From: an uncultured Clostridia bacterium
Lineage (GTDB): Bacteria; Bacillota; Clostridia; TANB77; CAG-508
Reading direction: 5' to 3'
Length of the DNA stretch: 64,000 bases
Assembly (NCBI GenBank): GCA_934178475.1
Contig: CAKPQH010000001.1
Coordinates: 190,902 to 254,901, forward strand
Positions 47,824 to 49,460 of the stretch are shown one piece after another (position 1 is the first letter of the stretch; each line of letters opens with the position of its first letter). A program made the position numbers and the translations under genes. The notes beneath the pieces were generated by a model that saw only the letters and a list, made by a program, of their open reading frames with translations, had not been told where the DNA came from and did not search any database.

Positions 47824-48180
47824 CTATGTAATTTTTATCGATTGTATAACTGTAACTATTCCTGATGCAGAAAATACTAGTAATGCTCCTATAAAATAGG
47901 GTAACATTGTTTTCTTATATTCTGCTTTTTCTTCTGCACTTCCCATCATATATTTTATACCTAATACAACTATTACAGCAACAGATACAACCATTCCTAT
48001 ATTTTTAAGAACACTTATTATTTTATTTCCCATACTGGCTATTTGAGTATCTGATGAATTATCAGTTCCTTGAAGTTGTGAAGGATTTATTGCAGCCATT
48101 GTCTCTGGTATAAAAGCAGAAATCATTACTCCAACAATCATTATTATCAAAAAAAACTTGGTTACTTTTTTTCTATTCAT
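47824..48180 (-). CDS. T4SS pilin-like (VirB2/TrbC-like) protein, paralog 1
   Basis: 118 aa. Signal peptide ending TMAA, variable region, then two TM helices bridged by LGIKYMMGSAEEKAEYKK. Confidence 0.7.
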   Translation of the reverse strand: MNRKKVTKFFLIIMIVGVMISAFIPETMAAINPSQLQGTDNSSDTQIASMGNKIISVLKNIGMVVSVAVIVVLGIKYMMGSAEEKAEYKKTMLPYFIGALLVFSASGIVTVIQSIKIT

Positions 48181-48207
48181 ATTATCCCCTCCTTAACTAT
48201 CATTTGT

Positions 48208-48241
48208 AAAAAGATAAATAGCATATGCTATTTATCTTTTT
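48208..48241 (-). terminator. perfect 34-nt palindrome between pilin paralogs 2 and 1
   Basis: AAAAAGATAAATAGCAT|ATGCTATTTATCTTTTT. Confidence 0.55.
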
Positions 48242-48249
48242 ATTAACAA

Positions 48250-48603
48250 TTAGAATTGGATACTTGCAATAACTTTTACTATTGCAGCTGCAGAGAATAT
48301 TAATAATGCCCCTATAAAATAAGGTATTAAAGTCTTTTTATACTCTGCTTTCTCTTCTGCACTTCCCATCATGTATTTTATACCTAAAATAACTAAAACA
48401 GCTACTGCAACAACCATACCTATATTAGTTATTACATTTATGATTTTTGCTCCTATTTGTGTTACTTCACCAACAGCTTGTGGGTCTTGATCTAATTCAT
48501 CAAGAATACCCCCATCACCAGCTGCAAAAACAGGTACTACAGATAGAATCACACATAAAACAATAGACATAATTCCAATTATTTTCATTGTTTTTTTATT
48601 CAT
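48250..48603 (-). CDS. T4SS pilin-like protein, paralog 2
   Basis: 117 aa. Signal peptide ending VFAA. The core is nearly identical to paralog 1 (NIGMVVAVAVLVILGIKYMMGSAEEKAEYKKTLIPYFIGALL). Confidence 0.7.
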   Translation of the reverse strand: MNKKTMKIIGIMSIVLCVILSVVPVFAAGDGGILDELDQDPQAVGEVTQIGAKIINVITNIGMVVAVAVLVILGIKYMMGSAEEKAEYKKTLIPYFIGALLIFSAAAIVKVIASIQF

Positions 48604-48671
48604 AATATTTCCTCCTTTTTTATTTGTTTTATATTAAAAATCTAATAAAATATTAGAAAGTTAAAAACTAA

Positions 48672-49052
48672 TTATACAACATTATTCATTACGGTTACTA
48701 CCAATTTCCATATTGCAAAAGCACCAAAAACAATTACACACCCTATAACATATGGTATTAATTGTTCCTTTACTTTTGCCTTATCTTCAGCACTAGCAGC
48801 CATGAATTTTATTCCTAAAACTACTCCTATAATGCTAGCAGCTGCAATGCCTATATAAAGTAATATATAATACATACTAGCAGATGCATCTTCAAGCTTG
48901 CTTTCATCAATCTTAACATTTCCTTTACTCACAAAATCGTCAGCACCTTTAAATATATCTCCCCATGTTCCCGCATTTGATATCGTAGGAAATGATATCA
49001 TAAAAATAATACTAATAGCAACTATACTTATTAAAATATTCCTTTTTTTCAT
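48672..49052 (-). CDS. T4SS pilin-like protein, paralog 3 (divergent)
   Basis: ATG at 49052 follows AGGAGG. Signal peptide ending ISNA. Core VLGIKFMAASAEDKAKVKEQLIPYVIG. Confidence 0.65.
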   Translation of the reverse strand: MKKRNILISIVAISIIFMISFPTISNAGTWGDIFKGADDFVSKGNVKIDESKLEDASASMYYILLYIGIAAASIIGVVLGIKFMAASAEDKAKVKEQLIPYVIGCVIVFGAFAIWKLVVTVMNNVV

Positions 49053-49088
49053 ATCATCCCTCCTATCTCTCATAGATTTAACTATTTA

Positions 49089-49460
49089 TTAAAAATTTTG
49101 TACTATATTAAATATTAAATTAGGTAAAACTGAAACTGAAAATACTAATATAGCTCCTATAATATATCCTGGCATTACTTGTTTAAACTCTGCTTTTTCT
49201 TCAATACTTCCCGTCATAAATCTTATACCTATTATCATTAATGCTCCAACAGATACTACTATTCCAATATTTCTAATTGTAGATAATATTACATCTACTT
49301 TTTTTATAAACTGTTGATCATCATCTGGAGCTATTACACTACTTTCTTGTTTACTTGGATCCCACTTATTAGGATCTAATACATCTGCCGCCATACATAT
49401 ATTAGTACAAAACATCTGAATTACAATAAATACAATCATTATTATAGATAATCTTTTCAT
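49089..49460 (-). CDS. T4SS pilin-like protein, paralog 4 (divergent)
   Basis: Signal peptide ending CMAA. Core IIGIRFMTGSIEEKAEFKQVMPGYIIG. The start is most likely the ATG at 49460. Confidence 0.65.
   Translation of the reverse strand: MKRLSIIMIVFIVIQMFCTNICMAADVLDPNKWDPSKQESSVIAPDDDQQFIKKVDVILSTIRNIGIVVSVGALMIIGIRFMTGSIEEKAEFKQVMPGYIIGAILVFSVSVLPNLIFNIVQNF

Follow-up and report, generated by a model that had tools for sequence, protein, structure and literature searches.

A 64,000-nucleotide stretch of the genome of an uncultured Clostridia bacterium (GenBank assembly GCA_934178475.1, contig CAKPQH010000001.1, positions 190,902 to 254,901), which we call the window, carries a tandem array of genes for small two-helix proteins resembling the VirB2-type pilins of type IV secretion systems (T4SSs), with genes for T4SS machinery directly downstream. 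A preliminary description of this DNA had proposed four tandem paralogs there, and the array does consist of four consecutive open reading frames (ORFs), all on the minus strand between 47824 and 49460, with products of 117-126 amino acids (aa):

47824..48180, minus strand: par1, a 118-aa VirB2/T4SS-pilin-like protein in slot p1, which adjoins the machinery genes
48250..48603, minus strand: par2, a 117-aa pilin-like protein
48672..49052, minus strand: par3, a 126-aa pilin-like protein (133 aa with an upstream ATG) in the putative ancestral middle slot
49089..49460, minus strand: par4, a 123-aa pilin-like protein (127 aa with a GTG start) in the putative ancestral distal slot

A GGAGG ribosome-binding site precedes three of the four pilin genes, with a weaker one at par4. 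Hydropathy analysis revealed three hydrophobic segments per protein: the N-terminal one is signal-like, with a positively charged N-terminus and an AxA-like end, and the second and third flank a charged loop. The anticipated cleavage-site motifs TMAA, VFAA, ISNA and CMAA are each found in the sequence, as are the loops GSAEEKAEYKK (shared by par1 and par2), ASAEDKAKVKE and GSIEEKAEFKQ. Conservation reaches 90% or more at two places in a 79-member family alignment, an alanine where cleavage is expected and the motif KYMMGSAEEKAEYKKT..PY. An AlphaFold2 model of par1 built with this alignment (predicted local distance difference test score, pLDDT, 78) comprises a signal helix and a helical hairpin (H44-79/H82-116). 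Hydropathy, AxA-like sites and predicted structure thus agree on the shared architecture first proposed, in which a signal peptide comes first, a variable segment next and a hairpin of two helices joined by a charged loop last.

Profile searches place all four proteins in a pilin family. Scores against PF18895 (T4SS_pilin) were 41.5, 44.8, 34.1 and 27.7 bits for par1 to par4, each above the gathering cut-off of 26.6 bits, and par1 to par3 also passed PF04956 (TrbC/VirB2) with 40.8, 45.5 and 28.1 bits against a cut-off of 27.9, par4 falling under it at 19.1 bits. Four adjacent matches above a curated Pfam threshold rule out chance, and with T4SS genes directly downstream they bear out the suggested VirB2/T4SS-pilin-like identity. 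The NCBIfam model NF045849 (Mycoplasma pilin-like proteins of integrative and conjugative elements, ICEs) matched par1 to par3 with 23-29 bits, below its curated cut-off of 40, and the VirB2 match was likewise sub-threshold. More than 3100 par2 homologues were recovered, all with both Pfam domains. A tblastn search of par2 against 72,556 plasmids returned no match, and plasmid relatives were reached through VirB4 instead. Holin and phage families gave no matches for the four pilins in Pfam, NCBIfam or PHROGs; a holin or phage origin is unsupported, the PHROGs scan having come back empty.

Far from being peculiar to this genome, the array is conserved in hundreds of species. Scanning one genome per GTDB species, we found the same VirB4 ATPase encoded by at least 438 species genomes, at 83-88% identity in the best 120 clusters and 80-88% across at least 80 species. 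The 80 retained genomes are all metagenome-assembled genomes (MAGs) labelled Clostridia or Clostridium sp. (CAG:343, CAG:575, CAG:567, 28_17), from human, rabbit, goat, sheep, chicken and mouse guts, and at least 23 gut-metagenome contigs encode a protein identical to par1, the four genes and their origin context being the same there too. A family-built hidden Markov model (HMM) run on six-frame ORFs of the species loci detected, at nearly every locus, a same-strand pilin array ending just before a PrgI-like gene. Copy number, compared over the loci with complete upstream DNA, is three genes in 30/64 and four in 34/64. In a library clustered at 50% identity, one representative (63% identity) stands for the full-length VirB4 of the clade; full-length relatives beyond it do not exceed 40% identity, and the named ones among 10 looked up are Firmicutes (Heliorestis, Peptostreptococcaceae). 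The nearest relatives outside the clade are metagenome proteins and VirB4s of Clostridium plasmids, at about 40% identity.

Some of these species encode enlarged pilins (L084 4442-5749, L087 5967-7220, L064 6291-7382 and L073 6966-7778). Distal-slot pilins may bear N-terminal extensions of 150-350 aa without a known domain, and one pilin is extended at the C-terminus by a stretch that weakly matches collagen repeats; extensions at either end are consistent with both termini being extracytoplasmic. The outgroup locus L091, whose VirB4 is 63% identical, has three pilin genes, one of which (6946-7674) encodes a 242-aa tandem fusion with two pilin hairpins behind a single signal peptide. Such a di-pilin fusion hints, as a Rosetta-stone-type sign, at co-assembly.

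Comparison of the paralogs separates a conserved hairpin core from a labile N-terminus. Par1 and par2 are 57% identical overall. Their core had been called almost identical in protein and very similar in DNA; it is indeed similar, and the loop is identical, but at 75% protein and 76-79% DNA identity (about 72-77% at nucleotide level in the helices) in a genome of 26% G+C, that wording was too strong. The dissimilarity reported for the exposed N-terminal segments is real, with 16% identity in the variable segment. Across species, mean pairwise identity is about 0.2 in the variable segment of every slot versus 0.5-0.9 in core and loop, and the hypervariable mature N-terminus is accordingly the fastest-evolving part in each slot, its divergence between species being roughly neutral or above neutral in rate.

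The slots themselves are old. Over about 70 species, a hairpin core finds its nearest neighbour from another species in the corresponding slot about 80-90% of the time, and par3 and par4 each have their nearest neighbours in the corresponding slot; slot p1 is the most conserved, with a loop identity of 0.90. This slot orthology indicates that the paralogs are ancient and individually maintained. In 33/37 four-gene species p2 groups with the p2 of other species, and we read the p2 of most four-gene species as an old relative of p1. In four lineages of the 37, the window included, p2 instead resembles the p1 of the same array more than it does the p2 of any other species: the par2 core is 75% identical to that of par1 and at most 60-66% to the p2 or p1 of any other species. 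This closeness, together with a terminator hairpin of its own described below, suggests that par2 is probably a lineage-specific duplicate of p1 copied along with its terminator. Overall, the ancestral array is best read as three slot-specific paralogs, of which the proximal one has been duplicated repeatedly.

Substitution rates speak to how the core has stayed alike. By the Nei-Gojobori method, synonymous (dS) and nonsynonymous (dN) divergence between par1 and par2 is 1.09 and 0.157 in the core (dN/dS about 0.15), 1.08 and 0.59 in the signal peptide, and 0.84 and 1.26 in the variable part. Since the core has no deficit of synonymous change, recent gene conversion, which had been offered as what maintains it, finds no support, and strong purifying selection on the hairpin core and its charged loop explains the conservation. 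The p1/p2 pair of locus L020, which is much younger and 96% identical in the core, has a core dS of 0.27 and dN of 0.019, compared with 0.62 and 0.76 in its 13-codon variable part; nonsynonymous sites differ at 13.5/28 in the variable part versus 3/156 in the core. A dN at or above dS, over 13-21 near-saturated codons, is compatible with diversifying selection and with relaxed constraint alike. Five contigs of the species, from different samples, agree at 99.7-100% over the array; this set is biased in that the contigs were chosen for an identical par1.

Predicted transcription signals frame the array as follows:

49484..49523, minus strand: promoter-like site upstream of par4, TTGACA-16-AAAAAT overlapping TTGCAA-17-TATAAT (pattern match; 10/12 in a consensus scan)
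48207..48242, minus strand: terminator-like hairpin after par2, inverted repeat I2, with perfect 18-nt arms (free energy, dG, -18 kcal/mol; z = -6.6)
47762..47818, minus strand: terminator-like hairpin that follows par1 and closes the pilin operon (dG -24.2 kcal/mol; z = -9.1)

The site upstream of par4 is near-consensus and sigma-70-like, and no other was detected ahead of the entire array; within the array, a weak promoter-like site lies before par1. Hairpins of -10 kcal/mol or stronger follow the last pilin gene in 100% of three-gene and 92% of four-gene species. After other slots they occur in at most 8%, which makes the par2 terminator rare for its slot, and none that is strong follows par4 or par3 here. 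A search of the array for invertible or shufflon-like repeats found none, the only repeats being the two terminators and the direct-repeat family of the core. The predicted promoter and terminal hairpin suggest that the pilin genes are transcribed as a unit of their own.

The array lies near the replication origin. Reading upstream from it, the gene order is two tRNA-Ser genes, DUF4446, parB, soj, rsmG, gidA, trmE, jag, yidC and rnpA, beyond which dnaA and dnaN lie on the strand opposite to the array. The two reference points are:

49850..50078, minus strand: two tRNA-Ser genes (ARAGORN), between the array and DUF4446/parB
60032..61378, plus strand: dnaA (PF00308, 1.3e-74)

Cumulative GC skew reaches its minimum at 58-60 kb, and about 10.6 kb separate the array from dnaA. 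This setting recurs: gidA, rsmG, soj, parB and DUF4446 precede the array in about 40/53 loci with enough upstream sequence. Median identities of the species loci to the window are 82.9% for VirB4, 81.5% for Soj and 78.5% for GidA. Pfam and NCBIfam scans detected no relaxase, coupling protein (T4CP) or integrase in the cluster or in nearly all window ORFs of at least about 90 aa, and no repeat of 14 nt or longer from the tRNA-Ser region that could be att-like recurs elsewhere in the window. Conserved synteny, housekeeping-level VirB4 divergence and the distance of the next relatives lead us to regard this T4SS as a vertically inherited, strongly constrained and fixed origin-proximal chromosomal system, not a mobile element.

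The remainder of the window consists of housekeeping genes. Among them are sporulation and germination genes for YpeB, SpoIIR, two nucleoside-recognition "Gate" proteins resembling spore-maturation proteins, and a Germane-domain protein (4087-5442, 16270-16938, 19451-20559 and 23772-24308), which identify the host as an endospore-forming Firmicute. Two ORFs that overlap the tRNA-Ser genes (49812-50138, plus strand, 108 aa; 49965-50087, minus strand, 40 aa) are almost certainly spurious. G+C content is very low (0.157-0.177) at 30001-32000, 22001-24000 and 62001-64000, and these stretches hold sizeable intergenic gaps, for example 30375-30712 and 31355-31656.

The genes following the pilins encode the core of a T4SS:

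47265..47648, minus strand: PrgI/VirB3-like membrane protein (PF12666, 28 bits against a cut-off of 27)
46058..47275, minus strand: 405-aa TrsD/TraC-N-like protein, equivalent to the N-terminal part of VirB4 but separately encoded (PF26593, TraC-like)
44146..46128, minus strand: VirB4-family ATPase (NF045971, CD1110-type VirB4, 2.8e-62; PF19044; PF01935)
41294..44125, minus strand: 943-aa extended VirB6-like polytopic membrane protein (weak match to the MMCAP2_0566 family)
38270..41265, minus strand: three bitopic membrane proteins of 325, 436 and 219 aa, each with an N-terminal transmembrane segment only
35071..38313, minus strand: 1080-aa cell-wall hydrolase with NlpC/P60, glucosaminidase and C39-like domains
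31657..35053, minus strand: 309-aa membrane protein, 256-aa ABC ATPase and 564-aa polytopic membrane protein, which together form the distal end of the cluster

The PrgI-like, TrsD-like and VirB4 genes begin 175 nt downstream of the pilins, an arrangement that recurs in about 70 species loci. The MPF_FATA-type set is present, comprising a TrsD-like protein and homologues of VirB3, VirB4 and VirB6, and the 1080-aa hydrolase is a VirB1/PrgK analogue. The TrsD-like protein also matches positions 60-384 of NF045975 (VirB4_plasma) weakly. Its ORF overlaps that of the 660-aa ATPase by 71 nt (46058-46128), or by 50 nt with the start chosen by gene callers, and this split of VirB4 is kept in all relatives, including the Clostridium plasmids and Heliorestis. 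The 325-, 436-, 219- and 309-aa proteins had no family matches in Pfam or NCBIfam scans; the three bitopic ones, syntenic in 44-65 species loci, are candidates for a VirB8-like component. The ABC ATPase (PF00005, 8.9e-27) and the 564-aa polytopic protein (31657-34114) close the cluster, the ATPase being 70% identical and syntenic in 38 species loci.

Residues 204-262 of the VirB6-like protein (window 43340-43516) form a pilin-like hairpin that the pilin HMM matches at 6.7e-9, with the loop SADKAKYK where the pilins have SAEEKAEYK. The hairpin is also present in the VirB6-like proteins of nearly all species loci and in a C. botulinum plasmid homologue, and the common loop may be a shared docking motif. 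The same protein varies within the species. When positions 14056-19851 of the same-species contig L002 (flanks 99-100% and VirB4 99.5% identical) were compared with 38270-44125 of the window, the VirB6-like protein was only 35.7% identical, the 325-aa protein 65% and the 219-aa protein 77%, with the 436-aa protein between them at 99%. Hypervariability at the strain level thus resides in the VirB6-like protein and in two of the bitopic proteins, and not in the pilins.

Several known systems resemble this one in part. The statement in the preliminary description that classical T4SSs encode one VirB2 is true; earlier reports of tandem arrays nonetheless exist for Bartonella Trw, Anaplasma/Ehrlichia and 383 Patescibacteria assemblies (PMC12102498). 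The Patescibacteria arrays, 441 in number, belong to an MPF_FATA-derived T4SS that lacks a relaxase, has a TrsD-like protein and often lies near dnaA (PMC12102498); examples are SEML1_0006-0019 of Southlakia epibionticum, where the pilin-array T4SS is essential (PMC10633639), and Nanosynbacter lyticus TM7x (PMC12102498, PMC10633639, PMC12857230). The window T4SS matches every tested architectural feature of that type: VirB3/PrgI, TrsD-like, VirB4, VirB6-like and hydrolase genes of MPF_FATA type in a monoderm envelope, no relaxase in the cluster, a location that in Patescibacteria too is often beside dnaA, and tandem divergent two-helix pilins (2-11 genes there). In contrast, the host here is an endospore-forming Firmicute of the Clostridium class and not an ultrasmall epibiont, and the arrays have 3-4 genes with clear slot orthology and core identities of 26-75%, versus a mean of 25% there. 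Set apart by its host and by its nearest named VirB4 relatives, which are Firmicutes, the window system is best taken as parallel or related to that of Patescibacteria and not as a member of the Patescibacteria VirB4 clade. A literature search found no paper describing such pilin arrays in Clostridia.

Bartonella Trw and the Anaplasma/Ehrlichia systems likewise have tandem, variable VirB2 copies with the variation in exposed parts, for which a role in adhesion or variation has been proposed, and Trw also lacks a T4CP. These are diderm pathogens, however, and Trw co-amplifies a VirB5 homologue, whereas the window system is monoderm, has no VirB5, keeps its slots across hundreds of species and showed no within-species variation of the pilins in the contigs chosen for identical par1. 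With Agrobacterium VirB2, RP4 TrbC and R388 TrwL, the window pilins share a signal peptide, two helices, a short loop and a gene position just before virB3-virB4, and differ in their several copies, Gram-positive host and long variable mature N-terminus.

The C. botulinum p12/29-type and C. beijerinckii plasmids and a chromosomal element of Heliorestis convoluta share the gene order of the window, encoding in turn a small two-transmembrane protein, PrgI-like, TrsD-like, VirB4 and VirB6-like proteins and a hydrolase; their VirB4s are 36-41% identical to that of the window, and their VirB6-like proteins also contain the pilin-like hairpin. These systems differ in having a single small pilin-like gene, below the PF18895 cut-off (18 bits), and a plasmid or mobile context with recombinases in place of the origin. 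Among plasmid-borne VirB4s, the nearest (41% identity) come from C. botulinum and C. beijerinckii, on plasmids of 134-169 kb that are typed as non-mobilizable. Two of these, L089 and L090 (C. botulinum p12/29 and C. beijerinckii p1), carry a full T4SS module beside tyrosine recombinase and actin-like ParM/ALP genes, and may be conjugative with an unrecognised relaxase. The Mycoplasma ICE proteins Mbov_0395/MMCAP2_0565 (NF045849) are also small pilin-like proteins of a monoderm T4SS, but that family is ICE-borne and single-copy, and the par1 to par3 matches to it are under cut-off. Finally, a "conserved pilin" cluster reported in TANB77 (PMC11680825) is likewise a conserved set of pilus-type genes in this order of uncultured, reduced-genome gut Clostridia; it encodes a Tad/type IVc pilus (CpaB, TadZ, CpaF, TadB/C; one-transmembrane pilins of 143-236 aa), a different machine from the window T4SS.

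Taken together, these observations make it likely that the four proteins are Sec-exported two-helix subunits of VirB2/TrbC type, belonging to a fixed, origin-proximal, non-mobile T4SS of a large clade of uncultured, low-GC, endospore-forming gut Clostridia. We envisage that the pilins would be inserted by Sec such that both the N- and the C-terminus lie outside and the loop lies inside, after which the signal peptide would be cleaved. A platform of VirB4, VirB3 and VirB6-like proteins would then extract the subunits from the membrane and assemble them. The slots would co-assemble non-redundantly, as major and minor subunits or as a heteropolymer, into a fibre or a wall-spanning conduit displaying the variable N-termini (20-45 aa, predicted extracytoplasmic). 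By analogy with the Patescibacteria T4SS and Bartonella Trw, this structure would serve contact or exchange with other cells and not conjugation. Non-redundant co-assembly is suggested by slot conservation, the single promoter-like site and the di-pilin fusion. We are reasonably confident of the identity and nature of the system; heteromeric assembly specifically is a more tentative proposal, to which we give somewhat less than an even chance.

Several points weigh against this interpretation. A Foldseek search of the par1 model against the PDB found nothing at E <= 0.001, in a fold class (helical hairpins) that is poorly discriminated, and the family profile run against PDB sequences reached R388 TrwL (8s6h) only at E = 0.18, outscored by a designed coiled-coil protein. 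The promoter and terminator calls are sequence predictions, as are the putative fibre and the expression of its subunits. The case for co-assembly draws on slot conservation, one promoter-like site and one fused gene from another lineage. A T4CP or relaxase could also sit elsewhere in the genome, as the scans covered the 64-kb window.

One alternative to co-assembly is the idea that the paralogs are interchangeable surface variants, as has been proposed for trwL of Bartonella Trw and virB2 of Anaplasma, with the N-terminus varied for evasion of immunity or phage or for partner binding. It would account for the exposed N-terminal segment evolving fastest, for the repeated and independent duplication of the proximal slot, and for par1 and par2 each having their own terminator with a weak promoter-like site before par1. 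Orthology of the slots in about 70 species argues, however, that copies are kept by selection and not turned over. The array also has no detectable invertible or recombination elements and no amplified VirB5-like gene, and it is nearly invariant among the same-species contigs (selected for identical par1) while other T4SS genes vary. Only one promoter-like site was detected ahead of the entire array as well; the earlier suggestion of interchangeable subunits is not supported, and we consider surface variation unlikely. It is also doubtful, if a shade less so, that the proteins are VirB2-like membrane or channel subunits of a translocon that never form an extracellular pilus. VirB2 is needed even in pilus-less Gram-negative T4SSs, the same hairpin and loop motif in the VirB6-like protein suggests a role inside the membrane complex, and the related Clostridium and Heliorestis systems keep one such gene although Gram-positive conjugation is considered pilus-free (PMC12857230). 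Three to four copies in a terminator-bounded operon, with fast-evolving and extendable termini, better fit an abundant exposed structural subunit.

Two further explanations concern the origin of the array and its cluster. Ongoing gene conversion could keep the par1 and par2 cores alike while the N-terminus escapes, as might be read from the 4/37 four-gene species in which p2 is nearest its own p1, among them the L020 pair with its 96% identical core. The window core is nevertheless as diverged at synonymous sites as the signal peptide and variable part, p2 groups with foreign p2 in the other 33 species, and the extra par2 terminator fits duplication of p1 with its hairpin, which together make this very unlikely. 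That the cluster is a conjugative element integrated at tRNA-Ser, its pilins serving mating-pair formation, we find scarcely credible: the two adjoining tRNA-Ser genes, the likeness of the gene set to Gram-positive conjugation modules and the nearest plasmid relatives in Clostridium all invite the comparison, but neither a relaxase, T4CP or integrase nor an att repeat was found in the cluster or the scanned window, and the position at parB/DUF4446 is the same in about 40/53 species with divergence at the housekeeping level.

Reading the array as the pilin genes of a non-mobile clostridial T4SS, the window system extends the recently described pilin-array kind of T4SS to a new phylum. A review of December 2025 and a survey hold that VirB2 is otherwise absent from Gram-positive T4SSs and that Patescibacteria are the sole monoderms with the potential for a conjugative-type pilus (PMC12857230, PMC12102498); an array in spore-forming Clostridia contradicts this current generalisation. 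It also provides a second, independent lineage in which to ask what pilin-array machines do, and its slot-orthologous paralogs make the question of heteropolymer versus variants testable. In related Clostridium plasmids, the small gene ahead of prgI can likewise be recognised as encoding a VirB2-like protein, and the clostridial system is a candidate relative or donor for the system of the candidate phyla radiation (CPR). That endospore-forming gut Clostridia make a true VirB2-type pilus of several subunits, using a non-conjugative T4SS passed down vertically and itself the Firmicute sister or source of the Patescibacteria system, is a possibility we entertain without counting on it; if true, such a pilus would overturn the idea that VirB2 pili are missing from Gram-positive T4SSs. 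In the hosts, represented by at least 438 species-level genomes recovered from the guts of humans, mice, rabbits, ruminants and chickens, VirB4 is as conserved as housekeeping genes, and an obligate function in cell-cell contact or exchange, if true, could help explain why this abundant, reduced-genome gut clade stays uncultured.

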